Shown here: positions 1-64,000 of the stretch, in pieces | Position numbering within the stretch: the first letter of the stretch is position 1 | Layout: every line of letters starts with the position of its first letter | Sequence record: MH494197.1 | DNA: 64,000 nucleotides | Direction: 5' to 3' (one strand) | DNA from: Escherichia phage CMSTMSU | Notes under the pieces: model-generated | Told to the model about the DNA's origin: nothing | What the model saw: only the letters and a program-made list of their open reading frames with translations | Database searches by the model: none | Program-made: the position numbers and the translations under genes

Positions 1-356
1 ATTTGCACTGTGCATTAAATCACCTTTGTTTAAATTACAAAAGTACTGAAAACTGTTCTTAAAAGAATGTACTGATATTACAAAATCAAATTCCATCACT
101 CTTCCCTAGATTGAAATGATTACTAAAATTAGTTTCACCAGTTTTACACCATTTATCTATACATTCCCTGTGAATGCATTTAATTCTACGCTGGATTTCA
201 ACAATCTCTTCTAATGTACAGATGTACTTTTGTCAAATACTAATGACTCCTGAAATAGTGCAGCATCATCCATTAAGGTATAGTCCAGCATATCGGTTGC
301 TTTACAACTAAATCCAGTACCAAGATCCATTAAATAAAATTGTGAATTCCAGAACT

Positions 357-551
357 TTATAACCTTGCCCTTGTGTAGTTTAAATCACCTTTGTACAAAT
401 TACAACACGTAATCAACTCACCCGTGTACATCCATGTCCCTATACAAAATTCTTTATATTTTATTTCCATCTTAATCTCTACTGTAATTAATAAGGTAAA
501 CTCCAATATAAGGAGCACGTTGGGGCGGGGTATTTTTGTTTCAGGAAACAT
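357..551 (-). CDS. hypothetical small protein (weak)
   Basis: Track ORF on the dominant coding strand; 3' end overlaps a repeated promoter-like motif, so uncertain. Confidence 0.25.
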   Translation of the reverse strand: MFPETKIPRPNVLLILEFTLLITVEIKMEIKYKEFCIGTWMYTGELITCCNLYKGDLNYTRARL

Positions 552-869
552 GAACTGTACTCTGAAAACACATTTTAAAACTTTATATTAAACATATACC
601 TTAACATGTTTTTCAGCGAAAATTTTTTGACCCCAGCGGCCTGTGAAAATGAAACGTCTCTATTTATTCAGCCTAGAAAGCTTGATTTCTTCAATCCTTT
701 TCATCGCACAAAGCCTTCGACTCGTCCTCTCGTACATATTCAATACTCGCTGTAATGCATTATCTGTATTATCTGAACTGCAATCTGAACCAAATATGTA
801 TCCTTCAAAATCGAATCCATCATGAATTCAAAACCTTTCACACTAAAGCAATATACCACTTCCGGCTCT

Positions 870-1070
870 TCAAACGTAATCATAATTCCAATCTGTCCCA
901 TCTAACCTTCTAAGATATCTTGCGTAAATTATTTCGAAATATCTGTGCAACGAAATTACGGATTGCTCATAATCATCATTCCTGTACATTGTGCATGTAA
1001 GAAAATCATTTAAACCGTAATCTAAACTGCACTTGAACTTCTCCTTTGCAACATCTCTAAAATTATCCAT
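870..1070 (-). CDS. hypothetical protein
   Basis: Track ORF in co-directional minus-strand gene block. Confidence 0.4.
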   Translation of the reverse strand: MDNFRDVAKEKFKCSLDYGLNDFLTCTMYRNDDYEQSVISLHRYFEIIYARYLRRLDGTDWNYDYV

Positions 1071-1243
1071 AATATGTCCTCTGCACAGCGTAGGTGTACT
1101 GTGAACTCAGCACCGTTAATAGGTAATCTATATTGTAAGCACGATTTCCTCGTTGACTAGCACGACTAGAATAAAGAATATTATCCACATATGTATTGAA
1201 CTGTTCTTCAAATAACTCTTTCATCAGCACCCTTTAACAACCT

Positions 1244-1600
1244 TTAACAACCTTTAACAACTTTTGAAATGTAATCTTCTAATACACCAATGTTCTTTGT
1301 ATTCGTTCGAACTAAAAGATAACTTAAATTCTCGAACTCCTGAACATAATGCTTAACAGCGTACATGCATCGTAATTCAAAATCTGTATGAACCGTTTTG
1401 TACTGAAATAACATCTCTTCTGATGCATCTAAAAGCTCTGTAGCTTGTTCTGTACTGAACTTAAAGGGATTCTGTACTCCTGAACTAAAACACTTTTGTA
1501 CGTTCGTCTGGACACCCTGTGATAGATATAATCCTGTACTACCATCTTGTGTTGATATCGAATTGAAACCATTACTTGCAACCATTAAATCTGAACTCAA
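1244..1600 (-). CDS. hypothetical protein, FQ-motif family
   Basis: Contains SEEMLFQYKTVHTDFE, matching the ExxFQ-YSLVHD core shared by >15 ORFs. Confidence 0.5.
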   Translation of the reverse strand: MSSDLMVASNGFNSISTQDGSTGLYLSQGVQTNVQKCFSSGVQNPFKFSTEQATELLDASEEMLFQYKTVHTDFELRCMYAVKHYVQEFENLSYLLVRTNTKNIGVLEDYISKVVKGC

Positions 1601-1806
1601 TACAAATAATAATTTATCTTCCTTATGAATTAATAAATCTGACTTCAGGATTTTATTCCTGTACTGGTTATATCACCTATACTAAGATTGTCACTGAACT
1701 TCTCAGCGTTGTTCGCAATGCTCTGGACAAGATTTTTAATCTCTTAATGGCACTTCTGTCTTTTTCTAATGTATCTAATAAACTCATTGAACTCATTGTA
1801 CTTTCC

Positions 1807-2151
1807 TTACATATTTGTACCGAACAAAACGGAACTTTGAATACCATTAATCGACACTTCATGTACATATATATTTTGTCTGAATACCTGAAGCAATTGA
1901 ACTAAACTTTGTTGCATAATAATATGCATCGCTACATTATCAAAGGCCGTTTCGTATTGGAATCGTGCAGCTTCATCTTCTATTAAATTCGGAACTTGGA
2001 CTGGATTCTCAAAATTTGTCCTTGTACTGAACTGTACATCATTGTCCTGTACCTTAATACCATATGAATTATCATTGTTATCAACTACATCAAATTCAAT
2101 TAAACTACCATCTTTACTGACGTTCACTATATACACTGAAAATCTACTCAT
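1807..2151 (-). CDS. hypothetical protein, FQ-motif family
   Basis: EDEAARFQYETAFD motif. Confidence 0.5.
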   Translation of the reverse strand: MSRFSVYIVNVSKDGSLIEFDVVDNNDNSYGIKVQDNDVQFSTRTNFENPVQVPNLIEDEAARFQYETAFDNVAMHIIMQQSLVQLLQVFRQNIYVHEVSINGIQSSVLFGTNM

Positions 2152-2194
2152 AATCCTATTTCCTTTAAATCTTCCAAAAATGTTTCATAATCAC

Positions 2195-2464
2195 TTAAGG
2201 AAAAAAGATATCCGTATCGATGTTCGCATCTAATACATTATACAAATTCTGCATCTGTAACACATCAGGAGCATCAATCAATGATTGCTGGAAATAGGCA
2301 GCTTCATCTTCTAAAATATCCCTGAATGTTCTCTCTCGTACTCTGTGGTGTACTGAATTGAATATTGATTTCTCATCCTTAAGCATTGGTAGGTATCGAA
2401 TGTACATGTGTTCTCTTAGCTCAGGACTGATGGAACCCTGAACTGTAACACGTATTCGAAGCAC
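2195..2464 (-). CDS. hypothetical protein, FQ-motif family (possibly one frame-disrupted gene with 2416..2703)
   Basis: EDEAAYFQQSLIDAPD motif; 49-nt overlap with upstream ORF in another frame. Confidence 0.45.
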   Translation of the reverse strand: MLRIRVTVQGSISPELREHMYIRYLPMLKDEKSIFNSVHHRVRERTFRDILEDEAAYFQQSLIDAPDVLQMQNLYNVLDANIDTDIFFP

Positions 2465-2703
2465 ATAGCAACATCCTGAAGGTAATTGGCACTGTAATTA
2501 TTGCTGTAAACAATCTTATGACTTCTGAACTCATCATCATTTCTGAACCAATTGTCACCTACTTTGGTGTACTTATGACTAAGCAATCCACCCTCTAACG
2601 CTTTGATGATCTTCAAAATGTTGTGTGCAAATGCATATGATGTATTGTACTTGGCCTGATACATGTGTGCCTCATCTGCCTCATTTGGCGTTAAAATATT
2701 CAC
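2416..2703 (-). CDS. hypothetical protein
   Basis: Track ORF, minus-strand block. Confidence 0.4.
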   Translation of the reverse strand: MNILTPNEADEAHMYQAKYNTSYAFAHNILKIIKALEGGLLSHKYTKVGDNWFRNDDEFRSHKIVYSNNYSANYLQDVAMCFEYVLQFRVPSVLS

Positions 2704-2875
2704 TGAAATGATTATAACACAAAAGCACCACTATGTTAAGCACTCTGTTGTCAAAATCATCTTGTGATGCAGGATGCAAGGACGCATTGATGTTAAAATT
2801 CACTATATCATTGTGGAATTGGTATGTGAACAAATCAAACTTCGTATGCCTTTGTTTGATATCATAGGCGGTCAT
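2681..2875 (-). CDS. hypothetical protein
   Basis: Track ORF, abuts next ORF. Confidence 0.35.
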   Translation of the reverse strand: MTAYDIKQRHTKFDLFTYQFHNDIVNFNINASLHPASQDDFDNRVLNIVVLLCYNHFSEYFNAK

Positions 2876-2876
2876 A

Positions 2877-3080
2877 TTATATATTCAACCCTTTAACAAT
2901 GGAAATAAATTCTTTGTATACATTTTCAGGTAAAGCTTTACTACCATAAAGAATACTAAATTCAGGTAACATATCCGAAATCTCTTTCGCTAAATTTATT
3001 TCATCCCTGAACATTTGCACAGGCATGATATCCTGTACCAATGATAACTGAAAGAAAAATGATTCAATATCTTCATGCAC
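2877..3080 (-). CDS. hypothetical protein, FQ-motif family
   Basis: ESFFFQLSLVQD motif. Confidence 0.45.
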   Translation of the reverse strand: MHEDIESFFFQLSLVQDIMPVQMFRDEINLAKEISDMLPEFSILYGSKALPENVYKEFISIVKGLNI

Positions 3081-3236
3081 CTCTGAATTTAAATAAATCT
3101 CTTCTGGAAACTGGGCTGTACTGTAATAATAAAATACATCAATTCTTTTTCATTATTTTGTACAAGAGGTAAATTTCTTTCGTCTCTCTTATTAATATTT
3201 GTTTTCCATGACTCAATGTTATTCGGAATCCAAAAC

Positions 3237-3482
3237 TCATAAGGTGTCTTCTCCTGAAATATTATCCAGCTTCAATCCATAATATTCACCTTCTCCGTAC
3301 TTTTGCTTCAAAACAATACCTGTACTACTAATGTTTACAATGTACGTATCAACAATCCCTTCTGTGCTAAAAGGAATATTTAACTCTGAACCTTCAGGGT
3401 ACTTAGCATTGAATGCATCTAATGCTTTACTTAGCACTGGGATTGCACTGGTACTGTACTTCATTAATTGGTCTATGATCAT
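3237..3482 (-). CDS. hypothetical protein
   Basis: Track ORF; 4-nt overlap with the next gene suggests translational coupling. Confidence 0.45.
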   Translation of the reverse strand: MIIDQLMKYSTSAIPVLSKALDAFNAKYPEGSELNIPFSTEGIVDTYIVNISSTGIVLKQKYGEGEYYGLKLDNISGEDTL

Positions 3483-3853
3483 TTTAATTCTGTAATCACT
3501 GCATTTACTGCACTTGATGCAAATAAACTGATATTTGAACGATACATATCGTACACTGTACTTTCTTTCTTGTGCACAATGAAATCATAAAGATCAACGA
3601 ATGCAGGAATAATAATCTTGAATGATTTATTTGGGTACGTCCCAAAATCAACTGTACTCAATTTTGCAACGAGCATAACAACAAAGATTTCTTCTGGACT
3701 ATGCAATGTACTGTACTGAAAATATTCCTCAGCACTCATGGCACTTATTGCATTTATATCTTGTGTTTGTAATGTAATATTAAGATATTCAAAAATAGAA
3801 TAAAACTCTGATTTTGTTTGTATTTTGTATTTGTCAATTGGGGTATCTCTCAT
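3479..3853 (-). CDS. hypothetical protein, FQ-motif family
   Basis: SAEEYFQYSTLHSPEE motif; start/stop overlaps with neighbours. Confidence 0.5.
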   Translation of the reverse strand: MRDTPIDKYKIQTKSEFYSIFEYLNITLQTQDINAISAMSAEEYFQYSTLHSPEEIFVVMLVAKLSTVDFGTYPNKSFKIIIPAFVDLYDFIVHKKESTVYDMYRSNISLFASSAVNAVITELK

Positions 3854-4104
3854 GAACCATAAACGATCTTGTCCATAAAAGGAATGATTGAATTTGGGGA
3901 AGCCAGAAATACTTCTTCACTATCAATATCCTTTAACTCAATTTGCATACCGGATGAATTGGCAATAATTAATTCATTAAAAATATAATGAACCTTGTGT
4001 ACAATCTCTTGTACTGAATTGAAATCATCTGGTATTTTAAAATTTTCCATAGGTATCTCCTTAAAATGATTACACATTGTACCATGCATTTGTACTCGTG
4101 TCAA
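3850..4104 (-). CDS. hypothetical protein
   Basis: Track ORF with coupled stop/start overlap. Confidence 0.45.
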   Translation of the reverse strand: MTRVQMHGTMCNHFKEIPMENFKIPDDFNSVQEIVHKVHYIFNELIIANSSGMQIELKDIDSEEVFLASPNSIIPFMDKIVYGS

Positions 4105-4120
4105 ACAAAAAGCCCATATC

Positions 4121-4618
4121 TTACGATACAGGCATGTTTATTTGAATTTCATTGTACAAATCATCAATATATAGACATGAAAACGATAAACTTTCTTTAA
4201 CTATATTGTTGTGATAAAGCATTTTAAATGCAATATAGAAAAATAAATCAATATCATCATGTACTAAATTCTGCTGGAACCACCACTCTTCTGTTAAATC
4301 TTGTGCATTAAAATCATCAGGAACTACAATTGACGACATATCAGCATCTTCTTTGTACTCAAACCACATGTCGTCATTTGGATAACGTTCATGCTTCTCT
4401 GGGTAACAATTGCTGGGATTAAATGCTAAAATATAAAATGCCGTCGCAGAATGTTCTTTATTATAAAATGAATTATTCCACACCTGATACCTTTCACCAA
4501 CATCAAACTCTTTTGATACTGATGTTATTGCACATAATGTACGATATATTGTTTCTATTTTGTGAACAAATTTAAAGGCTGCATCTAAACTGAACTCTAA
4601 ATCAGACATGCGGTGCAT
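4121..4618 (-). CDS. hypothetical protein, FQ-motif family
   Basis: EEWWFQQNLVHDD motif. Confidence 0.5.
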   Translation of the reverse strand: MHRMSDLEFSLDAAFKFVHKIETIYRTLCAITSVSKEFDVGERYQVWNNSFYNKEHSATAFYILAFNPSNCYPEKHERYPNDDMWFEYKEDADMSSIVVPDDFNAQDLTEEWWFQQNLVHDDIDLFFYIAFKMLYHNNIVKESLSFSCLYIDDLYNEIQINMPVS

Positions 4619-4938
4619 AAAATTACCTCAACTAAAATAAGAACGGTATTGAATTCGAGGCAACCTTTGATACCTTGATTGTACATGTACTTTGCTACTA
4701 CATATTTCTGTACTAAATTATAATTATTAAATTCCTCAAAATTGTAATTTAGAATGAAATTTGTACTCAAAAATAACTTATGCATCTCTAATGCACTCTG
4801 ATAATATTTGTACAACTCACTGATATCAATACTTTGTAAATCACTTTGTTCATATGTATGATAAGGAATGGCGTCAATATCAATATTATTAAACCATTCT
4901 CTTAACTTATTAATATCAAATGTATTATTCAGCTTCAT
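4597..4938 (-). CDS. hypothetical protein
   Basis: Track ORF, minus-strand block. Confidence 0.45.
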   Translation of the reverse strand: MKLNNTFDINKLREWFNNIDIDAIPYHTYEQSDLQSIDISELYKYYQSALEMHKLFLSTNFILNYNFEEFNNYNLVQKYVVAKYMYNQGIKGCLEFNTVLILVEVILCTACLI

Positions 4939-5071
4939 AACTCAATACCTCCATTAAGCACTCATAAACACCATCAATCGCATAAGCACAAAACTGAAAT
5001 TAATTTTGTTATTCTTGTGTAATGGACTATCGTGTACTGTACTCAACATAACACTATAAAACAAAGAACGT

Positions 5072-5500
5072 TCATGTGTAAATAATGATTCCTGAAAAAT
5101 GCTTCCTCTGATTTAATTTTATTATATTCAATCGATTGATCATTAGAATAAAATGAATCTTGATTTGAATTGTACCATGTGTAATCCAAATCATTCTTTG
5201 ATATAACTGGTGTTGGATTAAACTGTAAAAGACTAATAACACTACGGGCATTTGGGGTATCAGGTGTATTGAATCGTTTATCAAAATGACTCGTGCACGC
5301 AATATGTGAATCAAAATCAGATGGTTTAAACCCCATGAATGCGTTAATGATTCTTGTATATGGTTTTTATTATGTGCTGCTTTCTGTACATTATATAAGG
5401 CTGCAACAATACAAGCTAACTTTTGTCCCATAAGGATTGCATTAGCGTAGGTGTACTGAATTTCATTGTACTCATTGCTTTCATTGTACTTCGAGATCAT
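5072..5500 (-). CDS. hypothetical protein (alternative frame 5043..5336 suggests frame disruption)
   Basis: Two overlapping same-strand ORFs in different frames. Confidence 0.35.
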   Translation of the reverse strand: MISKYNESNEYNEIQYTYANAILMGQKLACIVAALYNVQKAAHNKNHIQESLTHSWGLNHLILIHILRARVILINDSIHLIPQMPVVLLVFYSLIQHQLYQRMIWITHGTIQIKIHFILMINRLNIIKLNQRKHFSGIIIYT

Positions 5501-5690
5501 GGAACAGCCTCACTTTGCCTAACTCGTCATTGGATATTAATTCGTTAACAGCTTTTTGTATATTCTTTAATAATAGCACATCAAATCCTTTTGTGTCAAG
5601 CACACATTGCATTTGGAAGAATTCTTCTTCTGATAATGTATTAAAATCCACAAAATTGTCTAATATTACGTCATTATCCAAATGTGCCAT
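5481..5690 (-). CDS. hypothetical protein, FQ-motif family
   Basis: TLSEEEFFQMQCVLD; close paralog of 5818..6129. Confidence 0.55.
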   Translation of the reverse strand: MAHLDNDVILDNFVDFNTLSEEEFFQMQCVLDTKGFDVLLLKNIQKAVNELISNDELGKVRLFHDLEVQ

Positions 5691-5817
5691 GTGCCATGTA
5701 TTTCTTTCGAGCGTTTAATAAAATTCCATCCATCTGGATAATCGGGTTCTAATTCTACATATATCCCCGATACTGTATAAAGCATTTTATATATCATAAC
5801 TATTGTACTCATTGTTT

Positions 5818-6129
5818 TCACTGTACGTCGATGTCATAATACGCTCCTACCTCATAATCTTTCTTGCTTTGGAATTCATTAACGACTTTCTGTATATTTC
5901 TTAATGTTACCATGTCATGTCCGTACATGTCAACCACCAATTGCATTTGGAAAAATTCTTCTTCAGATAATGTATTAAAATCTATAAAATAATCCGTAAC
6001 AACCTGTGCGTCTAAATTTGCCATGTACCATTGATTGGTATCGACCTCTTTAACCAAATTCCATGCATCTGGATCGGATTCTAATTCTACATATATTAAT
6101 GTTAATGTATAAAGCATTTTATACTTCAT
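5818..6129 (-). CDS. hypothetical protein, FQ-motif family (starts MKYKMLY)
   Basis: TLSEEEFFQMQLVVD; part of a duplicated two-gene cassette. Confidence 0.55.
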   Translation of the reverse strand: MKYKMLYTLTLIYVELESDPDAWNLVKEVDTNQWYMANLDAQVVTDYFIDFNTLSEEEFFQMQLVVDMYGHDMVTLRNIQKVVNEFQSKKDYEVGAYYDIDVQ

Positions 6130-6463
6130 AACTATATCCTTGCATTAATAAATCATAAACGTTTGAAAGGTGCGGAATTTTGATATAAAATTTAAAACCC
6201 TTAATTAAAGGATTCGCGTACAATGAACTGAATAACTTTAGATAATGTATTTGACGAGGACTGTATAATAACGATTTCTGAAATAATTCAGCACTACAAT
6301 CTGAACTAATATCAATTAAATCAATTCGTGCTTCTACTTCATCATCTTGTTTCAAAACATAAAAGAAATAATCGTTTGTGTTGACCCACAAATACCCTTC
6401 ACTATTTTCGTATATAACAGGAGATGCTTGTTCTGGATTGCCTTGGCAAATGCTGCAAAACAA
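6119..6463 (-). CDS. hypothetical protein ending ...LLMQGYSYEV
   Basis: Paralog of 6700..7014 (identical C-terminus), SAELFQKSLLY motif. Confidence 0.5.
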   Translation of the reverse strand: MFCSICQGNPEQASPVIYENSEGYLWVNTNDYFFYVLKQDDEVEARIDLIDISSDCSAELFQKSLLYSPRQIHYLKLFSSLYANPLIKGFKFYIKIPHLSNVYDLLMQGYSYEV

Positions 6464-6699
6464 ACTTTTGCATTACTTTCATCTTTAAACATAAACGATA
6501 ATTTATCATATCTATCTTCTATGCGTAAATCACCTATAAAATGTACTTATGCATAGAATGATTATTCTTGAGCATAAGCATTACTGTACTAATCTTGTGT
6601 GCTAATAATTCTATCTCATTCATATATTATTACCTATTGATTGATACATCGTCATTGTCTTCTAATTCAACATAAATCATATCTTTTGTATAAAGCATT

Positions 6700-7014
6700 T
6701 TATACTTCATAACTATATCCTTGCATTAAAAGATCATAAGCAATATCAACTAATTCTAAACGAATGAAAAATTTTAAATTATCTTTCAATGGATTCAAAT
6801 GCATTGTACTAAACAACATAAGATACTTCATTTGATTTGTATTGTATATTAGGGATGTCTGGAATACTTCTGCTTCATTGTAAGGATCAATGAATTTTAT
6901 ACCTTCTTCACTGTAATCCGTTTTGGAATTCTGATATATAAAATAATCATCACCAGCATTGTACCACAAATAACCTTCAAAACTGGAATCAAATTCTGAA
7001 TTTTCATTTCGCAT
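6700..7014 (-). CDS. hypothetical protein ending ...LLMQGYSYEV
   Basis: Paralog of 6119..6463; followed by a truncated MKYKMLYT copy. Confidence 0.5.
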   Translation of the reverse strand: MRNENSEFDSSFEGYLWYNAGDDYFIYQNSKTDYSEEGIKFIDPYNEAEVFQTSLIYNTNQMKYLMLFSTMHLNPLKDNLKFFIRLELVDIAYDLLMQGYSYEV

Positions 7015-7259
7015 TAAAGGTGATACTGAAATTGGATTTGAACCAACTGTTGCACAAACCTCAATGAAAGCATCTTCATTTCCTTAACTTCTTCTTTGAT
7101 TTTATCATTGTACTGACCTGCAAAACCAGCTTTCACTTCCAAATATAAACTACTCCCAACTTTATTAATTCTTAAAAGGGAACTCTGTACTGTATTCGCA
7201 TTGTTCAGCACTAACGATATTGTGCAAATCTTATGTACCAATAACTCAATATCATTCAT
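7014..7259 (-). CDS. hypothetical protein
   Basis: Track ORF. Confidence 0.4.
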   Translation of the reverse strand: MNDIELLVHKICTISLVLNNANTVQSSLLRINKVGSSLYLEVKAGFAGQYNDKIKEEVKEMKMLSLRFVQQLVQIQFQYHL

Positions 7260-7270
7260 ATTGGTATTCC

Positions 7271-7486
7271 TTAATTTGGTGGATTTGGATGTAATAACTG
7301 ATCTATATAATTTAAATGTTCTATTGTAACTAATGAAAGATAATAATTGTAATTATCTATACCACCCTTTAAATGTATATTGTAATACATCTTGATACTT
7401 ACTAATAAAGAATCATTTAAATCATTTATTGCTTTTGTATTAACGGTTTTCATTAATGTTCTTCTCTTAAAAACGCTTAATGGCAC
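7271..7486 (-). CDS. hypothetical protein
   Basis: Track ORF. Confidence 0.4.
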   Translation of the reverse strand: MPLSVFKRRTLMKTVNTKAINDLNDSLLVSIKMYYNIHLKGGIDNYNYYLSLVTIEHLNYIDQLLHPNPPN

Positions 7487-7626
7487 AATCTAAATAAAAA
7501 TCATAATACATCATATCTCTATTCTTAACCCATACACAATAATCTGCATTAATATTTCTTAATAATATATTCATATTATAATCTTCACACCCTAATCGTG
7601 CCATTTAATAGGATACTCCGTTCCAT

Positions 7627-7839
7627 TTATTGTATAAGATATAATCCATCCGTAATGAATAGGATGATTTTTGTCTGAATCAGGAATAAAATATAAAGAT
7701 GTACTGGGTTATAACTGAATAAATCGTTGTTACCAATTGTAAAATGTGATAACTCAATCTTCCTTGTACCTGTACTTGGACGAAGAACATTCTTAACACC
7801 GAAGACTGTACCTTGATATTTCTCGGAAAATTCAAACAA
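7627..7839 (-). CDS. hypothetical protein
   Basis: Track ORF. Confidence 0.35.
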   Translation of the reverse strand: MFEFSEKYQGTVFGVKNVLRPSTGTRKIELSHFTIGNNDLFSYNPVHLYILFLIQTKIILFITDGLYLIQ

Positions 7840-7964
7840 TGCATCTGCAATTAAATCACGAAACTCCGCATGTATGGTTTCAAAAAATCTATATTACACG
7901 ATGTTTTAATATCCTTGAACTCCTTATATAAAGAGCTTCTTGTATTCAAAAGAAATATTACTTT

Positions 7965-8165: not shown

Positions 8166-8199
8166 AAATCCCTGTACTTTGAAGCGTACAAATATTGGT

Positions 8200-55884: not shown

Positions 55885-55888
55885 AAAA

Positions 55889-55916: not shown

Positions 55917-55948
55917 TTAAATATAGTATAATGAATAAAGGAGGAATT

Positions 55949-56683: not shown

Positions 56684-56690
56684 AATATAG

Positions 56691-56716
56691 GCCAGTACTT
56701 GATACTGGCTTTTCTT
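56691..56716 (+). terminator. rho-independent terminator
   Basis: GCCAGTActtgaTACTGGC + TTTTCTTT. Confidence 0.6.
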
Positions 56717-56752
56717 TGAATTAAATATAGTATAATGAATAAAGGAGGAAAT

Positions 56753-57907
56753 ATGTTACCTTTTGTTAGAATGTTTGATTACGGGAATATTGCACCTGAA
56801 GCTCCAAAGATAAAGAAAGTACTGTGCGGTCTTGATAATTTGTACGTCCTCTATGACGATGGCTCACTTTATGGTTGTGGGGTTAATTCGTATTTTCAGT
56901 TAAACGTTACAAATACAGCAACAAGAAATACTTGGATATTAATTTCAGAAGGTGTTACTGATGCATGGGCTGGGGCGTACAATATTCTTTATATCAAGGG
57001 TGAAGAATTCATAATGCATGGAGTTACCACACAATTAGGCACAGGAAATACTATGATTCCGTTGGGTGGTTTGAATGTTACTTCTTCATTTCCACATATA
57101 TCTAATATTAAAATGATATCAATCGGTGCAGATACAATGCACTACGTTGATGCTAGTGGTTCGATTGTTTATGGTAGAGGCATGAATGGTAACTATTCAC
57201 TCGGTGGTGGGTATTCCACGGCTCAGAGTACTTTTGTTTCAGTTATTAATACCGGAGCTAATACAGTCCTTGATATATTGGGTACACAGAATAACACATT
57301 AATATTAACATCAAATGGTGAACTTCTCGGTTGTGGGAGTAGTGAGTATGGCTCACTTGGCGTAAGTCAAGGACAGTATACTACACTAGTAAGCAGGTTA
57401 ACCAGTGTTAAACTGTTTGGTGGTAACAGTACTGGTACTCTTGCTTATTCAGCCAGCAATATATACAACGCAGGTTGGCAGTATGTTGGTCAACTTGGTA
57501 ACGGTATTACAACGAACACACTAGTATATCCATTTGCATTTAACTCCACTACTATTGATAGTAACATACATAAAATATCAAAATCAAGTACATCTTCACG
57601 TGTTAATATGTACGCAACAACCGAAGGAAAGATATATAGTACTGGTGAATTTGGTAGAAATGGTTCTGGTGGTAGTTTGAGTAGATTCACCAATACACTA
57701 ACTTTAGATAATTACAACCCAGAAAAATCAGCATTATACACATGTGCACATTTTAGTATAGTATTTGATGGTAATAATCAAATTTATGCTTGTGGTTCTT
57801 TTTGTATGTGCGTTCTATTACCACGAACTCATGGTCTGCAATTACAATGCCGAAATGATACTATAAAACTATGCCAGTACTTGATGCTGGCATTTCTTTT
57901 GTATTAA
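56753..57907 (+). CDS. RCC1-like beta-propeller repeat protein, unit 13 (near-intact; extreme C-terminus probably frame-disrupted)
   Basis: Track ORF 56735 trimmed to the SD-supported ATG; close paralog of unit 1; ORF reads through the terminator hairpin. Confidence 0.6.
   Translation: MLPFVRMFDYGNIAPEAPKIKKVLCGLDNLYVLYDDGSLYGCGVNSYFQLNVTNTATRNTWILISEGVTDAWAGAYNILYIKGEEFIMHGVTTQLGTGNTMIPLGGLNVTSSFPHISNIKMISIGADTMHYVDASGSIVYGRGMNGNYSLGGGYSTAQSTFVSVINTGANTVLDILGTQNNTLILTSNGELLGCGSSEYGSLGVSQGQYTTLVSRLTSVKLFGGNSTGTLAYSASNIYNAGWQYVGQLGNGITTNTLVYPFAFNSTTIDSNIHKISKSSTSSRVNMYATTEGKIYSTGEFGRNGSGGSLSRFTNTLTLDNYNPEKSALYTCAHFSIVFDGNNQIYACGSFCMCVLLPRTHGLQLQCRNDTIKLCQYLMLAFLLY
57873..57900 (+). terminator. 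rho-independent terminator
   Basis: GCCAGTActtgaTGCTGGC + ATTTCTTTT. Confidence 0.55.
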
Positions 57908-58305
57908 ATATAGTATAATGAATAAAGGAGGAAAATATGTTACCTTTTGCAAGAATGGTTAAGTACGGAAATAAAAGACCATCTAATAATATCAAAAGAT
58001 TTCATGTACAACCAATAACAGTGTTTTGGTGCTCACCGAAAGTGGAGATTTGTATGGTTTTGGATTCAATTCAGGTGGTGAACTTGGCACTGGTGCAAAA
58101 CTAGTGTTACTTCAGTTATTCAAATTGACACTGGAGTTGATGATGTATGGGGTGGTAGTCTATGTGCAATGTACAGAAAAGGCGATGAATTCTTTGGCAG
58201 CGGGACGGTTCTTATTATGGTTCAAGTGCTGTTAACTCAACCACATTTGTAAATGTAACACACATATTCCAAGATATAGATATTCTTAATATTAAGAAAA
58301 TTAAA

Positions 58306-59070
58306 ATGACAACAGGTTTGTTTATATTAATGCAAAACGGCAACTTATATGGATGTGGGGTAAACACCAATTGTCAATTTGGTACTGGTGAGGCAGTGAA
58401 TTTTCGTTATCCTATAGCTACATTAACACAAACGGATGTTGTTGATTTTGATATTTTAGGAAACTCTAGTATAATATTAAAGACCGATGGGTACATGTAC
58501 AGTGCGGGTGATAATGGTCGTGGACAACTTGGTAGTTCTACTGCAACCACACTTCTGGTATATACACAAATTAGTAAATTTCCAAACGTAACCAATTTGG
58601 ATCTGTTCGGACACTCACAAGTTACTTCATTATTCAAAGATAGTGATGGTAAAACGTGGTTGAGTGGTAATAGTTATGGTATTGATTACCCAGTAGTAGC
58701 TACAACATTATTCAGTAAAGAAGCACCAGTACCTGAAGGTACATTTCGTTTTATCAACACAAGGGCAGGGTCAAATACACCAATAATATGTACACCCACT
58801 GGGTATTATGTTGCTGGTACTAACCCTTATGGTGCATATGGTATAGGTACGAATGTAACTCTGACAACATTCACAAGAATGGATTCTATGGATAGATACA
58901 TATCTGATTATAATAATGTTCCTGTTTTCGATGGATGTTTCTATGGGACATATTTTGCAGTTGGGGAACGTCTGTTTGGTGCAGGTAATGGTAATACTGG
59001 TAATGTTCCGGATATACTGGATCACAGCGTAACTATGTGGAAATTAATTATAAAAATAATTAAACCTTAA
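58306..59070 (+). CDS. RCC1-like repeat protein, unit 14 body (leader ATG at 57937)
   Basis: YGCGVNTNCQFGTG, GDNGRGQLGSS repeats. Confidence 0.5.
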   Translation: MTTGLFILMQNGNLYGCGVNTNCQFGTGEAVNFRYPIATLTQTDVVDFDILGNSSIILKTDGYMYSAGDNGRGQLGSSTATTLLVYTQISKFPNVTNLDLFGHSQVTSLFKDSDGKTWLSGNSYGIDYPVVATTLFSKEAPVPEGTFRFINTRAGSNTPIICTPTGYYVAGTNPYGAYGIGTNVTLTTFTRMDSMDRYISDYNNVPVFDGCFYGTYFAVGERLFGAGNGNTGNVPDILDHSVTMWKLIIKIIKP

Positions 59071-59076
59071 TACTAT

Positions 59077-59103
59077 GCCAGTACTTGATACTGGCTTTTC
59101 TTT
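59077..59103 (+). terminator. rho-independent terminator
   Basis: GCCAGTActtgaTACTGGC + TTTTCTTT. Confidence 0.6.
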
Positions 59104-59435
59104 GGTTAAATATAGTATAAAGAATAAAGGAGGGAATTATGTTACCTTTTGCTAGAATGGTTAAGTACGGGAATACTATACCCAAACCCGCTGGTGTGAA
59201 GAAAATTAGTACTTCCATTAATCACGTTGGGATGTTATTCGATAATGGAAATTTATATCTACGTGGGGTGGTGGTGAGTATAAGTTAGGAAATGACAGTA
59301 CTGGATTCGTACAGAATGGTTGGGTTAAGTGTCCATATAGCGTTGCTGATGTTTGGTGCTTCACTTACGCGACAATTATACTTACTACAAGTGGTGAATT
59401 ATACTTAGCTGGACAATTGGGTTATGTTGGTGTAG

Positions 59436-59849
59436 TTGCAGCGAGCGTACGGATGGACTAATATTACATCTAATTTATCCTCAATACCTGCACTTAGTAC
59501 TATACAAAACATAGCTTATACTGAGACTACAATTTACAATGGTGCTATATTAATTTTGTTAAGCAACGGGGACTTATATGGTATAGGTCGTAATGGTGGT
59601 GGTGTATTAGGCGTTTCTGGAATCCAATCAACTGCACTTAAGATTGACACAGGTGTTACTTTAATTGCTGGCACAGACCGTTCAGCGGCGTTACATTATG
59701 TGAAAAATGGTCAATACTACAGATGTGGGAATAATTCTCGCTACAACCTAGGAACAAGCTCTTCTGTTTTATCTACATTTACGGTAAGTACAGATATCAC
59801 AGGAACCGTACTGGGATTGCATGTACTACAAATGCGACTTCAGTACTGA
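59436..59849 (+). CDS. RCC1-like repeat protein, unit 15 fragment (leader ATG at 59139)
   Basis: YGIGRNGGGVLGVSG. Confidence 0.45.
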   Translation: MQRAYGWTNITSNLSSIPALSTIQNIAYTETTIYNGAILILLSNGDLYGIGRNGGGVLGVSGIQSTALKIDTGVTLIAGTDRSAALHYVKNGQYYRCGNNSRYNLGTSSSVLSTFTVSTDITGTVLGLHVLQMRLQY

Positions 59850-59872
59850 CATCATATAATGGTACTATTAGA

Positions 59873-60205
59873 GTGTATAGTGCTGGGACGAATACCGATT
59901 ATACGTTAGGTATTGGTTATGGAGATACCAGTATAATAATGAGTCCATTTAGTGCTACACCTCCAATTTATGGTATTGTACCAGATGCGGCATCACTGAA
60001 TAATTCTTGTATTAATTCTAATATGATTGCGATGACACAGGGTGGTAAATTGTATACATGTGGTAATGGTGTTGCTCTTGGTAGAGAAATCACTGCATCG
60101 ACACCTAGAACGGCGTACTATCCAGTACTATTTGAGGATTCAAATACTGCACTTGATGTTAATGCTTTTGCAGTGCAGGGGGTTCCGGTGTGTTATACGC
60201 ATTAG
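59873..60205 (+). CDS. RCC1-like unit 15 C-terminal fragment
   Basis: Same unit, different frame. Confidence 0.4.
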   Translation: MYSAGTNTDYTLGIGYGDTSIIMSPFSATPPIYGIVPDAASLNNSCINSNMIAMTQGGKLYTCGNGVALGREITASTPRTAYYPVLFEDSNTALDVNAFAVQGVPVCYTH

Positions 60206-60317
60206 TGGGGGCAAATGAGGTTTACTGGTGTGGTAGTGGTTCTATGTTCCGGAACAGAGTGCAGGTACACAACAAGTTAAAATGAAGAAAATGATTTTAC
60301 CAGAATAGGAGGAAAAT

Positions 60318-60773
60318 ATGTTACCTTTTGCAAGAATGGTTAAGTACGGGAATATAAAAGTAAAGAGTACTATCCAAAAAGTTATCCTTGGTGGTGGTGG
60401 TCAATGTGTGGTAACATTACTCAGTGATGGTAGAGTGTATGGACGTGGATACAATACAACATATGGGTTGGGTACTGGTACAACAACATTCGTAAGTGAT
60501 TGGGTATTAATGGGCGATAATATTGTTGATATCCATTCAAATGGTGTTACTGGCACATTCCTTATTACCAAAGAAAATAGAATTTTGTATTCTGGTTTTG
60601 CGACACCAATCAATGGCACAACATCACATTATACACGTTTCACTGATTTAACATCAACTGTATTTGCTGCGGTGGATGTTAGTAATATTAAAACAATTAC
60701 GGGAAATGGTAATGTTACAATGGTTCTTTTGAATGATGGTTCACTTTATGGGAGTGCAAATACAGGGTTATAG
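60318..60773 (+). CDS. RCC1-like repeat protein, unit 16 N-part with leader
   Basis: MLPFARMVKYGN; YGRGYNTTYGLGTG. Confidence 0.5.
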   Translation: MLPFARMVKYGNIKVKSTIQKVILGGGGQCVVTLLSDGRVYGRGYNTTYGLGTGTTTFVSDWVLMGDNIVDIHSNGVTGTFLITKENRILYSGFATPINGTTSHYTRFTDLTSTVFAAVDVSNIKTITGNGNVTMVLLNDGSLYGSANTGL

Positions 60774-60882
60774 GTAATGGTAGTAACGTTGCATTATCAA
60801 CACAAACATATGTGACTAATGATGTGCGTGATGTGAAAACATATCCATCAATGAACACTATAACAAAAATAATAATCAAATA

Positions 60883-61449
60883 TTGGCTAGTGGTATTTTA
60901 TACCAAGGCGTGAACGGTACAAATTCATCAATAAACACGTCTTCATATACATTACTGTACACATTACCGAGTTCTGATTGTTTTCAATTTGCATTTGATA
61001 CATATACATTTGGATATGTTGACCCTAGTACTAACACTTCTTATATAAGAGGTATACCAATAAATGGTTCATTAGGTAATGGCGTTACTAATAATACAGC
61101 AGTTACAACATGGGTTACTAAAGTTTGGAATACACCAATTGATAGTTCTATACCTAATAAATCATATACAACTAACCATGTCTCCTTGTTCAATGATGGA
61201 AACTTATGGACAACTGGTGCATCTAGTGTCGGCTATTCCAATGGTACAAATAGCACAACAGCTAATACATGGACCAGTTCATCTAATTTACCATTCAACA
61301 CTAATAACATAACAGACTATGCTTTTGGTGGTAGTATTACTGTGGTGGTAATCGACTATAGGACTATGTACATACTAGCTAACAACGCCATTGCTGGTAC
61401 TGCTACGACAACTTATAAATTTGAGCCATATAATTCTCCACCAGTTTAA
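60883..61449 (+). CDS. RCC1-like unit 16 C-part
   Basis: Ends right before the bidirectional hairpin at 61456-61474. Confidence 0.45.
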   Translation: MASGILYQGVNGTNSSINTSSYTLLYTLPSSDCFQFAFDTYTFGYVDPSTNTSYIRGIPINGSLGNGVTNNTAVTTWVTKVWNTPIDSSIPNKSYTTNHVSLFNDGNLWTTGASSVGYSNGTNSTTANTWTSSSNLPFNTNNITDYAFGGSITVVVIDYRTMYILANNAIAGTATTTYKFEPYNSPPV

Positions 61450-61455
61450 TATAAT

Positions 61456-61481
61456 GCCAGTACTATGTACTGGCTTTCTTT
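61456..61481 (+). terminator. terminator hairpin between convergent genes
   Basis: GCCAGTACtatGTACTGGC + TTTCTTT; minus gene 61480..61857 ends on the other side. Confidence 0.55.
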
Positions 61482-61857
61482 ACATATTATATAATGTGAA
61501 TGCTGTCACTTTACCAGTTGTTGTTAGTTCATTATAAAGATACTCCAATATTCTCGCACACTCTAAGTATATCTCGATATCATCATGAATAAGTGAGTAC
61601 TGAAATAGCTGTTCTTCAGATAATTTGTATTGACTTCCTTTTAATGAATTGAGAATATCTTTCACATCATCAAGTACTGGGTAAAGTACGAAATCTTCAT
61701 CATATTTTGAAGCAATAAATTCAAATCCACCACCATCAGTACTAGATATACCAATCAGTACTTTATCAACCAAGTTAATGTTTATATAACGGTTGTGATT
61801 TGGGTGAATTGAAATCTCAAACATACGAGTACTGTTACAATCAACATCAATATACAA
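61480..61857 (-). CDS. hypothetical protein, FQ-motif family
   Basis: LSEEQLFQYSLIHDDIEIYL; isolated family member inside the RCC1 array. Confidence 0.5.
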   Translation of the reverse strand: MYIDVDCNSTRMFEISIHPNHNRYININLVDKVLIGISSTDGGGFEFIASKYDEDFVLYPVLDDVKDILNSLKGSQYKLSEEQLFQYSLIHDDIEIYLECARILEYLYNELTTTGKVTAFTLYNM

Positions 61858-61903
61858 ATATACATCGTTGAATTTATAAGTTAAGCAACCGTACTCAAGA
61901 AAA

Positions 61904-62128
61904 TCAGAGCAAATAATTGATGAGTTTTTCTCGTCTCTGCGTAATGCATCTTGATATTCTTTTCACGCATAAGTAATTCGAACTTTGCACTAAACTTGCC
62001 ACCAGTAAGATAATTAGTATTAGGACGTTTGTAACTTGCAACTGGTCGGTGGGATGATGTAAAGTATTTTTTGTGAATCGTTTCTGTTTAGTGAAATATT
62101 CTTGATAGAACTTACTTCTTTTATTCAT
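61904..62128 (-). CDS. hypothetical protein (possibly frame-disrupted)
   Basis: Track ORF co-directional with 61480..61857. Confidence 0.35.
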   Translation of the reverse strand: MNKRSKFYQEYFTKQKRFTKNTLHHPTDQLQVTNVLILIILLVASLVQSSNYLCVKRISRCITQRREKLINYLL

Positions 62129-62342
62129 GAGTACCTCAATTAAATCGCTGTAAAATTGTACATTATAAAATGATTAAATAAAGTATAACACAAGGAGATT
62201 TTATCATGTTACCTTTCGTATTGTTATTTGATTATGGGAACGAAAAACAAGAAAGTTCTTATGATGTTAGTGTATATGGAAACAATAACTACATTTTAAA
62301 TAAACAAACTGGAAACCTTTTTGCATCCGGTGCTGCGCATTC

Positions 62343-62945
62343 ATGGGTGATAACACAGTTAAGTATTATATTACCCAAATAGAATCAAATGTTCATAGCT
62401 GTGAGATAGGTTTCCTATCATCATGGATAATTAAGAAGGACAAAACTGTTTTCATTTTAGGAAACAAAAGCAGTATTGGATTAACTGATTCGACAACATC
62501 ATGGTTCGAAATTACAAACTTATTTTCTGCTGTTCCTGAAATATGGGACAACCTATTTGAATGTAAAGTTCAATTGGGATATAACTGCATACGTGTTATG
62601 ACACCACTAGGATCAATATATGCGATTGGTACAAACACTTATGGTGCATTGGGTACTGGTACTACATCCTCATCCACTTCGTTCGTTAAAAGTGGTGCTG
62701 TGGATGCTGTACGCATGGAATCAACAGAACGTTCAGTGTTCTATCAAAACAGTTCTGGACAATGGTTTGGATGTGGTGATAACACATATGGTATACTAGG
62801 TCTAGGAACTACCGCTAGTCGTGTAAACTCATACACCGCACCAGTATGGACTAATGCAGAAGCTGTTAGCTTCTCTAACCGTGGATCATATACAGCCTCA
62901 ATGGTACTCTATACTCATGTGGTGACAAAGTTAATGGTCAGCTAG
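62343..62945 (+). CDS. RCC1-like repeat protein, unit 17 body (leader ATG at 62208, MLPFVLLFDYGN)
   Basis: YGALGTGTTSS, YGILGLGTTAS repeats. Confidence 0.45.
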   Translation: MGDNTVKYYITQIESNVHSCEIGFLSSWIIKKDKTVFILGNKSSIGLTDSTTSWFEITNLFSAVPEIWDNLFECKVQLGYNCIRVMTPLGSIYAIGTNTYGALGTGTTSSSTSFVKSGAVDAVRMESTERSVFYQNSSGQWFGCGDNTYGILGLGTTASRVNSYTAPVWTNAEAVSFSNRGSYTASMVLYTHVVTKLMVS

Positions 62946-63312
62946 GGATGGATATACACAAAGCATAGACGCTGCCGAGCACACCATACACCATAGGAAC
63001 CGCATTCCAAATTGGTAAGGCAATAACATCAGCTACACAAGCATCAGCCAACGTATTCATTGGTAAAGATAATAAGTTCTATGGTACTGGTAGTATTGCT
63101 GCTGGTATAAATGGTAGTACTAGTGCTGCATTAAGTAAAGTTACTGCGTTATCAGCATCACTACCACCTGACATTACATACAATGATATTATATCATTTA
63201 ATACAGGGACCGTAACTTTTATTCAAGCAAAGGACAACTATATTATGTTGGTAGAAGAACTTACATAGATAATAGTTCAGACGTTACCACACAGTTCAGT
63301 GTAATTGGTGGA

Positions 63313-63729
63313 TTAGATAATTAAAATTAATCCAGTACTATTATAGTACTGGATTTTTATTATAACATACGTTTTTACGAATAGTATTGTGGATATTTTT
63401 AAGTAGTTCACACCTTTACACAACCCATAAAATACACCAGCACATACACCAAATGCAGGTATCATACATGCAAACATCGTTATCAATTCCCACATCTCCA
63501 TACCATCTTGATTCGGTCCAAGGTCAAAGATAACAACCAAAACCAAACCTGTGATACTTAGCATATAATATGCCATGAAGATAATAAAAGAAACAATACC
63601 AACATCAGAGCGAACTGAATTTAGCATATTATATACTGGGGTTACACAGAAGTAATACAATAACCAAATCAAAGAACCTAAACTAAACACAATAATAGTA
63701 ATGATTGAAAATATTTCACGATAACTCAT
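63313..63729 (-). CDS. multi-pass membrane protein
   Basis: Several ~20-aa hydrophobic segments. Confidence 0.5.
   Translation of the reverse strand: MSYREIFSIITIIVFSLGSLIWLLYYFCVTPVYNMLNSVRSDVGIVSFIIFMAYYMLSITGLVLVVIFDLGPNQDGMEMWELITMFACMIPAFGVCAGVFYGLCKGVNYLKISTILFVKTYVIIKIQYYNSTGLILII
63331..63358 (+). terminator. terminator hairpin at end of RCC1 array
   Basis: TCCAGTACTattatAGTACTGGA + TTTTTAT. Confidence 0.5.
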
Positions 63730-63730
63730 T

Positions 63731-63931
63731 TTAGTCCCTCGTACCTAAACGATCATGGATTTCGGAAATCTTATGATACAACCACGCCATCAACTCAACT
63801 GATGCACAGAGAATAACCACACACAGTGTTAGTGAACATATCATAATACCAAATGTTATAAAATTCAAACTCGATGTTAATAATGCAACCAGCATTAGAA
63901 TAAAACCAAAATTGAATGCTATACTCAACAC
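63731..63931 (-). CDS. small membrane protein
   Basis: Two hydrophobic helices in 66 aa; abuts the next gene. Confidence 0.45.
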   Translation of the reverse strand: MLSIAFNFGFILMLVALLTSSLNFITFGIMICSLTLCVVILCASVELMAWLYHKISEIHDRLGTRD

Positions 63932-64000
63932 AGTATATGCTGGACTATATCTCCTTTGTATTACATCATATATATTTGATAATGGTCGCTTATGGAAGTA

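Follow-up and report, generated by a model that had tools for sequence, protein, structure and literature searches.

AGTACT, a strongly over-represented palindrome of Escherichia phage CMSTMSU and related jumbo phages, and its possible recognition by a phage-encoded protein

We analyzed a stretch of 64,000 nucleotides from Escherichia phage CMSTMSU (sequence record MH494197.1), which as a whole is called the window below, and in particular the palindrome AGTACT, which an initial annotation had described as strongly over-represented throughout this DNA. A megablast search assigns the window to the Asteriusvirus group of E. coli jumbo myoviruses with genomes of ~350 kb (121Q, PBECO4, G17, TH47, fEgEco12 and others). 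Identities to the matching records are 83-98%, and none of these records covers the window over its full length. Asteriusvirus-type phages are distant T4-type phages. Genes of a relative include a family B DNA polymerase, a gp46-like ATPase, a tail sheath and a gp5-like hub-lysozyme, and the annotation of Klebsiella phage RaK2 lists a gp61/gp41 primase-helicase, UvsX and UvsW.

The layout of the window follows from the record of G17, which is linear with a direct terminal repeat of 20,668 bp. In the window, the physical left end of G17 corresponds to position 16,257 and the end of the repeat to ~37,350. Terminal repeats of 20,668 bp and 20,993 bp have been published for Sharanji (PMC11895373) and fEgEco12 (PMC13070987), respectively. 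The part of the window at 0-16.26 kb is the final 16 kb of the unique sequence. The terminal-repeat zone is an early region of tiny genes on the - strand, each with its own near-consensus sigma-70 promoter. Further small - strand genes lie at 37.35-43 kb, and an array of RCC1-like paralogues occupies the + strand at 45-60 kb. The regions most relevant to the argument are the following:

16257..37350, no strand: equivalent of the terminal repeat (~20.7 kb in G17), located by mapping of the G17 ends; the highest density of AGTACT
16383..63350, no strand: main AGTACT-rich span; its 241 copies are spread over promoters, terminators, all three frames of coding sequence and further non-coding DNA
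8838..10881, no strand: small cluster of 15 AGTACT, with TGTACT among them, where two TGTACT blocks of opposite orientation meet
68..8948, + strand: strand-polar block in which the + strand has ~50 TGTACT (54 if counted over the first 10 kb), beside ~14 TGTACA and 1 AGTACT
11550..15642, - strand: polar block of opposite orientation, in which AGTACA occurs 9 times in a row on the + strand (equivalent to TGTACT on the - strand) and AGTACT is absent; consensus CAGTACAGC

AGTACT occurs 257 times in the window, whereas dinucleotide-preserving shuffles of the 64 kb yield 20.8 +/- 4.5 copies, with a maximum of 31. Its extended form CAGTACTG has 53 copies versus 0.97 expected, and the three most enriched hexamers of the window are AGTACT, GTACTG and CAGTAC. 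Among the 64 palindromic hexamers, AGTACT is unmatched (11.9-fold). The ratio of observed to expected copies is 11.9 under Markov backgrounds of orders 0-1, 5.4 under order 2, 2.5 under order 3 and 1.2 under order 4, where the last value shows only that AGTACT's own 5-mers carry the signal. The claimed excess is therefore borne out and, at 257 copies versus ~21, is stronger than had been stated. That it extends throughout the DNA is true of 16.4-64 kb, where densities are 5-11 per kb (16.4-43 kb) and 2-6 per kb (45-64 kb) and the observed-to-expected ratio within 16.3-64 kb is ~15. It is not true of two regions from which AGTACT is nearly absent, namely 1-8.8 kb (1 site) and 10.9-16.4 kb (0 sites), between which 15 sites lie at 8.8-10.9 kb.

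One explanation for such an excess is that AGTACT is a by-product of repeated modules that happen to contain it, i.e., early promoters, terminators and duplicated cassettes. Modules of this kind do exist, and those pointed out previously are all present: AGTACTgTATAAT occurs in the spacers of ~19 promoters, the cassette end tgcaagtact (AGTACTTGCAA) occurs in 7 promoters, terminator stems have the form GCCAGTAC...GTACTGGC, and the intergenic run at ~36 kb, for which about 15 copies had been given, has 14 sites by our count of 35.8-37.0 kb. As a test of independence, we clustered the 257 sites on 40 nucleotides of flanking sequence, at an identity of at least 60%. This resulted in 191 clusters, 176 of them singletons, which is still ~9 times the expectation, so the excess survives the collapse of repeated copies. 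The largest flank families comprise 41 sites (promoters) and 10 sites (terminators). By context, 122 sites are coding, 42 lie in promoters, 16 in terminator hairpins and 77 in other non-coding DNA, such that the promoter and terminator families together account for only 58 of the 257. The proposal that the word is simply the shared stem of a terminator family is consequently insufficient. Information in the flanks is confined to position +/-1, where G reaches 46% versus a background of 17.5% and C falls to 8%; because only this position adds information, the element is 6-8 bp long with sharp edges.

For genome-wide counts, we assembled the 350-kb relative TH47 (MT446416). It has 909 AGTACT, and every 5-kb bin is enriched, the density being ~2 per kb where structural and replication genes lie and rising to 6-8 per kb within the terminal-repeat zone. 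The most enriched octamer of TH47 is CAGTACTG, with 203 copies (55-fold). Outside the early zone, AGTACT occurs at 2.1-3.0 per kb in coding and 2.0-2.2 per kb in non-coding DNA, does not peak at gene starts, at gene stops or in intergenic DNA, and shows no regular spacing, the intervals being Poisson-like with coefficients of variation of 0.91-1.04. This equality of coding and non-coding density across a whole genome also contradicts the terminator-stem proposal. Together with the many singleton contexts, the large coding fraction and an enrichment in core genes of three other genera (see below), it leaves very little credence for the by-product explanation. Repeat hitch-hiking as a complete explanation is ruled out by the flank clustering, the coding and non-coding densities and the synonymous shuffles described next.

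It might also be thought that AGTACT is common because proteins of these phages contain frequent Ser-Thr dipeptides that are written with the preferred codons AGT and ACT. Of the 654 coding copies in TH47, the three frames hold 330, 111 and 213, frame 0 (AGT-ACT) being the commonest; Ser and Thr are most often encoded by AGT and ACT, and Ser-Thr dipeptides are somewhat over-represented (57 versus 36). However, when synonymous codons are shuffled within each of 221 long TH47 genes, AGTACT is found 454 times versus 125 expected (z=34), a 3.6-fold excess that makes it the top hexamer by far. The open reading frames (ORFs) of the window behave similarly, with 31 copies versus 11.6 +/- 2.9, and 23 of their 57 Ser-Thr dipeptides are spelled AGT-ACT. 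Furthermore, the word is found in all three frames, is equally dense in non-coding DNA and is most enriched in non-coding promoter regions. We give this explanation next to no credence, the protein or codon effect being ruled out both by the shuffling of synonymous codons and by the way the word is distributed over frames and non-coding DNA; the codon bias is more likely a consequence of AGTACT than its cause. The same shuffles gave an unrelated observation: TAAATA and TATTTA are among the most depleted hexamers on the sense strand of the long TH47 genes (0.37 and 0.19 of the codon-shuffled expectation), which fits avoidance of a T4-like late promoter, ATAAATA. Such a late promoter has been reported for the clade (PMC5259590).

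Comparison between relatives indicates that the sites are retained. In alignments of the window with TH47, 88% of AGTACT sites are kept (166 of 188), whereas the figure for hexamers of any sequence is 69% (z ~5.7); for comparison, the promoter hexamers TTGACA and TATAAT are kept at 87% and 80%. Gains (28) and losses (23) of AGTACT between relatives are balanced and follow no preferred mutational path. In the polB gene, TH47 and an Erwinia phage (75% amino-acid identity) have 7 sites each, of which only 3 are at identical codons, and therefore the density is maintained while single sites turn over. The density of AGTACT would accordingly seem, on this comparative evidence, to be kept by selection on the DNA itself.

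A neutral alternative must be weighed here, in which a mutational or repair bias generates functionless sites, either through very-short-patch-type correction tied to a methyltransferase or through biased gene conversion. Neutral repair or mutational bias is one proposal made for the cyanobacterial palindrome HIP1 (highly iterated palindrome 1). The Poisson-like, position-independent spread of AGTACT, the presence of a methyltransferase gene (see below) and the balance of gains and losses would all be expected under such a bias. However, single-mismatch neighbors of AGTACT are not depleted (its deamination products AGTATT and AATACT are at 1.00 and 0.93 of the codon-shuffled expectation), which argues against a conversion drive of the very-short-patch type. 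In addition, site conservation is well above background, and mutations show no preferred path into AGTACT. We therefore regard a neutral bias as unlikely.

The same word is iterated in related phages of other hosts. In Klebsiella phage RaK2 (Alcyoneusvirus), AGTACT occurs 92 times versus 13.7 expected and CAGTACTG is enriched 59-fold; in 27 kb of core genes of Erwinia phage pEa_SNUABM_50 (Eneladusvirus), the count is 52 versus 8.6; and in 30 kb of Xanthomonas phage XaC1 it is 116 versus 10.4, with CAGTACTG as the top palindromic octamer. A 50-kb sample of E. coli K-12, in contrast, has 3 copies (0.06 per kb), so that AGTACT is 40-130 times denser on phage DNA than in this host sample. Judging from these genomes, the iteration characterizes the whole clade of 'Rak2-like' jumbo T4-type phages. 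At the same time, other palindromes are purged. In the window, 18 of the 64 palindromic hexamers have zero copies and GCGC occurs 3 times versus 64 expected, and in 210 kb of TH47 genes the counts versus codon shuffles are 0 versus 65 for CTGCAG, 0 versus 54 for CAGCTG and 0 versus 42 for GGTACC. Because other 6-bp palindromes are purged, the amplified AGTACT is exceptional; rather than being avoided as a restriction site would be, it is 12-fold enriched.

If a protein reads this word, it would be either phage-encoded or part of the universal cellular machinery, and the iteration of AGTACT in relatives on Klebsiella, Erwinia and Xanthomonas narrows the candidates to phage-encoded proteins. A site for a host protein, by which the phage would manipulate or titrate a host factor, has some initial appeal. 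The site of SlmA, which we take to be GTGAGTACTCAC, has AGTACT as its core, and CAGTA/TACTG presumably resembles the half-sites of LexA (LexA/TrpR-type half-sites). However, the G at -1 that this SlmA site would need is the rarest flank (20 of 257; 8%), there is no peak of spacing at the 18 bp needed for a LexA box, and the enrichment is found in Xanthomonas phage XaC1 as well. SlmA and LexA sites are ruled out by unfitting flanks and spacings, and since the Xanthomonas phage is equally enriched, an E. coli-specific host factor is disfavored in general; we consider a host-protein site highly improbable.

AGTACT has its most regular placement in the early region. Between 16.3 and 37 kb there are ~35 near-consensus sigma-70 promoters on the - strand, many with a perfect TTGACA-N16-TATAAT, and the consensus of this promoter family is aAGTAtTTGACAaagtatnttAGTACTgTATAATagTTTACATCaagg. 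AGTACT stands directly upstream of the -10 hexamer in ~19 early promoters, overlaps the -35 hexamer as AGTAC-TTGCAA in 7 and directly follows it as TTGAC-AGTACT in ~5, which amounts to fixed placement in ~31. The spacing of AGTACT pairs peaks at 19-24 bp in the early zone only, and helical phasing is found only within the early promoter family. Terminators can likewise be built from the word, although the criterion of an intrinsic terminator (a G+C-rich inverted repeat followed by a T run) applies to only 16 of the 257 sites, such that the GCCAGTAC-loop-GTACTGGC family is real but small. In G17, all 8 of 8 terminators after RCC1-like genes have the form GCCAGTAC-loop-GTACTGGC-T run, while those of the terminal repeat are of different families, including one with a -35 hexamer in its stem. 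Examples of these elements, and the densest non-coding run, are the following:

33063..33095, - strand: early promoter with two sites 20 bp apart, AGTAC-TTGCAA-ttagttttc-AGTACT-g-TATAAT
26447..26481, - strand: early promoter with consensus hexamers and sites flanking -35 and -10, AGTACT-a-TTGACA-tagtttgat-AGTACT-g-TATAAT
45025..45044, + strand: terminator-type hairpin GCCAGTACTCAAGTACTGGC followed by a T run, of the family found 3' of RCC1-like paralogues
63329..63355, + strand: hairpin AATCCAGTACTATTATAGTACTGGATT followed by a T run, with a stem built of two AGTACT copies; a homologous G17 terminator is at 40211-40232
35799..37002, no strand: non-coding stretch at the inner end of the terminal repeat, with 14 AGTACT, 9 of them as CAGTACTG

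In the last of these stretches, many sites are part of ATTAT(T/A)CAGTACTGAAT modules, which face in either direction and are interspersed with further iterated words. Promoter modules also coincide with points of rearrangement: in the alignment of the window with TH47, 6 of 12 promoter-side homology breakpoints lie at most 7 bp from a -35-adjacent AGTACT, where ~15% would be expected by chance. The suggestion that AGTACT is a recombination hotspot by which cassettes are assembled thus has weak local support, but it leaves the sites in core genes unexplained.

The region left of the terminal repeat differs from the rest of the window in having a strand-polar variant of the word, and the relaxed word family can be written as W-GTAC-W. 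Within 0-8.8 kb, AGTACA never occurs on the + strand and TGTACA (~14) is raised along with TGTACT. Sites in this block fall evenly into the three frames (12, 17 and 16), with 11 being intergenic. A stretch of mixed words at 8.8-10.9 kb separates this block from the oppositely oriented one, and the solid AGTACT run begins ~130 bp inside the terminal repeat. Genes of both blocks are on the - strand, according to both the ORFs of the window and the G17 annotation. Since the genes stay on the - strand, and the sites are spread evenly over frames and intergenic DNA, the flip in orientation belongs to the DNA itself rather than to transcription. TH47 has a matching polar pattern at 72.5-86 kb, with the + strand TGTACT run at 72.5-80.5 kb. 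RaK2 has no strict polar run and instead shows a dense early-type zone of AGTACT followed by a block biased to AGTACA on the sense strand; the pure polar block therefore appears to be genus-specific. No interconversions of TGTACT and AGTACT were seen between relatives. Genes of the TGTACT blocks all belong to PHROG families of unknown function, and none has a Pfam match. Base-composition skews also shift at ~10 kb, from a GC skew of ~-0.2 with an AT skew of ~0 to a GC skew of ~0 with an AT skew of ~-0.2.

These data bear on the idea that the functional form is an RNA element, AGUACU, serving as a signal for processing, stability or antitermination, where a palindrome in the DNA would put AGUACU into every transcript. 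Such a signal would be orientation-proof in a genome of which >90% is transcribed coding sequence, and paired copies do build terminator stems. However, sites are as dense in non-coding as in coding DNA, and many of them lie inside promoters, upstream of transcription starts. Moreover, the sense strand reads AGTACA in one polar block and TGTACT in the other while the direction of transcription is unchanged. We consider an RNA element improbable.

The polar blocks are best accounted for by a different explanation, namely a Chi-like or replication signal for the phage's own machinery, which could be gp46/47-UvsX recombination-dependent replication or the primase-helicase. The palindrome would then serve enzymes arriving from either side, and the one-stranded form would be used where the direction of travel is fixed. 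TGTACT is strictly one-stranded over 9 kb and flips at ~10 kb with gene orientation constant, which resembles Chi or KOPS (FtsK-orienting polar sequences) converging on a point. T4-type recombination and replication genes are present, AGTACT is written into coding DNA by codon choice, as Chi is in E. coli, and cassette breakpoints lie near AGTACT sites. The true E. coli Chi is itself concentrated and co-oriented in the terminal repeat, from which it follows that end processing matters to the phage genome. However, we know of no sequence-specific step for gp46/47 or UvsX; the terminal repeat, which is nearest to the physical ends, has the palindrome and not the polar form; RaK2 lacks a strict polar block; and the spacing is irregular, though use by a primase might favor regularity. 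We think this explanation unlikely on balance.

Chi (GCTGGTGG) deserves separate description. The terminal-repeat zone has 10 copies, all on the - strand (17605-36767), where ~0.05 would be expected; their flanks are unrelated, and two lie within terminator stems. Their orientation is the one read by RecBCD entering the physical left end (16257) and moving inward. Further copies on the + strand are at 30970, 42935, 56360 and 56618. The Chi-like words CTGGTG, TGGTGG and GCTGGT are over-represented as well, both in the relatives on Erwinia and Klebsiella and in the codon-shuffle tests.

We tentatively prefer, while holding it at somewhat less than even confidence, that AGTACT is recognized by a conserved DNA-binding or DNA-modifying protein which the phage itself encodes, that it serves as a self-label, and that its occupancy or methylation at early promoters could gate transcription. 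Among the options raised in the initial annotation, a site for a DNA-binding or modifying protein survives best, with the qualification that the clade distribution points to a reader encoded by the phage, while the host-specific version of that option is disfavored. From the genome-wide and clade-wide enrichment, its independence of frame and gene boundaries, the conservation of sites, their placement in promoters and terminators and the existence of a methyltransferase gene, we infer that some protein reads AGTACT, which protein it might be and what the consequences of reading might be.

The proposed mechanism would be as follows. Selection would hold AGTACT at ~2-3 per kb genome-wide and at 6-8 per kb in the early region of the terminal repeat, and a conserved, sequence-specific protein encoded by the phage would recognize it. 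A protein of the restriction or modification type is suspected because the word is short and sharp-edged (a hexamer and one flanking base). The concrete candidate would be an orphan N6-adenine methyltransferase of the Dam family that is found across the clade. Since AGTACT is so much denser on phage DNA than in the host sample (by the 40-130 times given above), the reader would find nearly all of its targets on phage DNA, and the word could thereby act as a self-label. At its fixed positions relative to the -35 and -10 hexamers, occupancy or methylation of AGTACT might switch early transcription.

The candidate was found in a motif screen of TH47 ORFs, which yielded one DNA methyltransferase of 174 amino acids with an NPPY motif. 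This protein matches PF05869 (Dam) with E=3.5e-33 and scores just below the cut-off of TIGR01712 (phage N6-adenine methyltransferase). Orthologues occur across the clade, always near a cytidylyltransferase gene, with identities of 83-100% in Asteriusvirus, 66-69% in Klebsiella and Salmonella relatives, 43-49% in Xanthomonas phages and 42.5% in Eneladusvirus. This distribution fits a predicted orphan enzyme of conserved specificity, possibly with a housekeeping role like that of Dam or CcrM.

It is important to emphasize that several points weigh against this preferred explanation. The methyltransferase tracks the clade, so its co-occurrence with AGTACT is trivial. Our search found no solved relative of the candidate from which its specificity might be inferred by homology, and we take the characterized members of its family to be specific for GATC or non-specific. 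Methylation alone, moreover, gives no reason for the enrichment of sites. The reader protein is a postulated one, the methyltransferase being a candidate. The sites in promoters may reflect tolerance of AGTACT in spacers and not regulation, and the strand-polar TGTACT blocks are not predicted by a symmetric binding-site model. Finally, a HaeIII-like methylase and another methyltransferase are listed for Sharanji (PMC11895373), neither of which was picked up by the TH47 motif screen. The probability not assigned to the explanations described here remains for one that we have not considered.

Among known systems, the closest analogue of this iteration would seem to be HIP1 (GCGATCGC) of cyanobacteria. 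Both are short palindromes in massive genome-wide excess, within and between genes, with one word used across a clade; HIP1 overlaps the target sites of a methyltransferase in a known case, and its function is still debated. By the features that define HIP1-type elements, AGTACT shows a many-fold excess, coding and non-coding alike, and conservation across the clade (Asteriusvirus, Alcyoneusvirus, Eneladusvirus and XaC1). It differs in occurring in a virus clade, in being AT-rich (CAGTACTG) and denser (2-8 per kb), in the purging of other palindromes and in having a strand-polar variant block. Chi and KOPS are likewise oligomers over-represented in coding DNA through codon choice, and TGTACT is strictly polar with a flip; however, AGTACT is palindromic and thus without polarity, has no known cognate translocase or nuclease, and is separate from the true Chi of the terminal repeat. 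Clusters of the Dam site GATC (the hexamers of phage P1 pac, or oriC with SeqA) are similar as short palindromic methylation words that are locally clustered and have regulatory or self-marking roles, and the phage does carry a predicted orphan methyltransferase of the Dam family, but GATC is not globally enriched in those systems.

AGTACT is also the recognition word of ScaI and Eco255I, and WGTACW is that of TatI. The sharp 6-bp edges of AGTACT are like those of type II restriction words, but phages normally avoid such sites and AGTACT is amplified. The DNA uptake sequences (DUS) of Neisseria and uptake signal sequences (USS) of Haemophilus are over-represented short words that often form terminator stems as inverted pairs; however, they are non-palindromic uptake signals of competent bacteria, whereas a phage has no uptake and most AGTACT sites are single and intragenic. 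The early region further resembles the promoter-early stem-loop cassettes (PeSLs) that mediate modular shuffling in T4-like phages (PMC2839356, PMC4122927). As in PeSLs, near-consensus sigma-70 promoters and stem-loops flank small variable ORFs, and indel breakpoints fall at the modules; specifically, the region has ~35 promoters, stem-loops, tiny hypothetical genes and 6 of 12 ends of high-scoring segment pairs within 7 bp of AGTACT. Descriptions of PeSLs contain no iterated palindrome, however, while AGTACT occurs at fixed offsets within the modules and also far outside them.

Some further observations concern the same regions. One terminator family, AAAAAGGGATTGACTCCGGTCAGTCCCTTTGCTATTATA, has a -35-like TTGACT in its stem and TATTAT 17 nucleotides downstream; it occurs in G17 (locus L002) at 1461-1482, 4213-4234, 7482-7503 and similar sites, and in the window at, e.g., 28128-28154. 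Judged by its sequence, this family would be a composite terminator-promoter of the PeSL kind. In the ORF-poor DNA at 16-38 kb, no tRNA genes and no known RNA families were found. Within it, 35500-37400 comprises ~1.9 kb without ORFs of at least 60 amino acids, and its G17 counterpart at 19.0-20.9 kb has no annotated coding sequence. Iterated words in this stretch include TTACGCCCAAAATTCA (4 copies) and TCCAGNC/TAGCCGTT repeats at 36467-36573; ATTATNCAGTACTGAAT modules (a -10 hexamer and the motif) occur in both orientations, and promoter-like sites lie on the + strand at ~36066 and ~36258. Rfam gave no match to 35500-37400 at gathering thresholds. The stretch could be an origin, a packaging site, an injection-stop region or the location of small-RNA genes. 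Two copies of ATCAGTACTGAATCAT lie 50 bp apart just past the end of the terminal repeat (window 37350-37430; G17 20669-20750). AGTACT is absent from the cut positions of the terminal repeat themselves (G17 left end AGGTTACCCGCCC...; repeat end ...GCCTACT).

A megablast search with window 16000-38000 matched 226 phage records, which include, at 60-90% identity, phages of Campylobacter (13), Klebsiella, Enterobacter and Acinetobacter as well as Justusliebigvirus and Phapecoctavirus phages. A short segment of the terminal-repeat zone is therefore common to unrelated phages; perhaps it is a mobile gene or regulatory module. In the RCC1-like array (45000-60000, + strand), each paralogue has its own AGTACT-stem terminator. 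Relatives annotate these genes as 'regulator of chromosome condensation' or 'DNA condensation protein', and their copy number and order vary strongly among relatives, with patchy coverage of 30-60%. Three - strand ORFs of the TGTACT block (1244-1600, 3479-3853 and 6700-7014) match only the C-terminal half of PHROG profiles (e.g., residues 84-199 of 200), and they may be split, truncated or mis-started genes.

The palindrome is not mentioned in papers on CBB, Sharanji, fEgEco12 and PeSLs, nor in the full-text literature on AGTACT combined with phage terms, a coverage that leaves out many subscription journals. Avoidance of palindromes is a textbook property of phage genomes, and this genome itself avoids many restriction sites completely. 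That one palindrome is amplified ~10-fold, and is the same word in phages infecting Escherichia, Klebsiella, Erwinia and Xanthomonas, implies that reading of this sequence is a conserved function. ScaI digestion and methylation calling provide immediate assays for AGTACT.

A more specific extension of the preferred explanation is also conceivable, although we regard it as doubtful. Ten ordinary restriction enzymes cut fEgEco12 DNA as predicted (PMC13070987), and therefore the phage DNA is not globally hypermodified. Rak2-like phages, lacking such hypermodification, would write CAGTACTG across their genomes as an 'address label'. The label would be read by a conserved phage enzyme, of which an orphan adenine methyltransferase of the GTAC type is one example, or by a partner binding to it; the reading would serve to distinguish phage DNA from that of the host and to set the timing of early transcription. 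The one-stranded TGTACT in the last 16 kb before the terminal repeat would mark a directional DNA transaction, such as fork convergence, end processing or packaging.

The phages concerned have genomes of 350 kb that are poorly understood, with >80% of genes being of unknown function. For this clade, AGTACT is a simple diagnostic signature in metagenomes, and the engineering of phages that are candidates for therapy must reckon with a site density under selection. If the word is indeed a self-label, it would reveal a way in which large phages distinguish their own DNA from that of the host without modifying it, and it would make the long-standing question of what highly iterated palindromes do more tractable. 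The address-label extension, if correct, would moreover make AGTACT the first iterated palindrome with a function in a virus and a model for HIP-type elements that is open to experiment.

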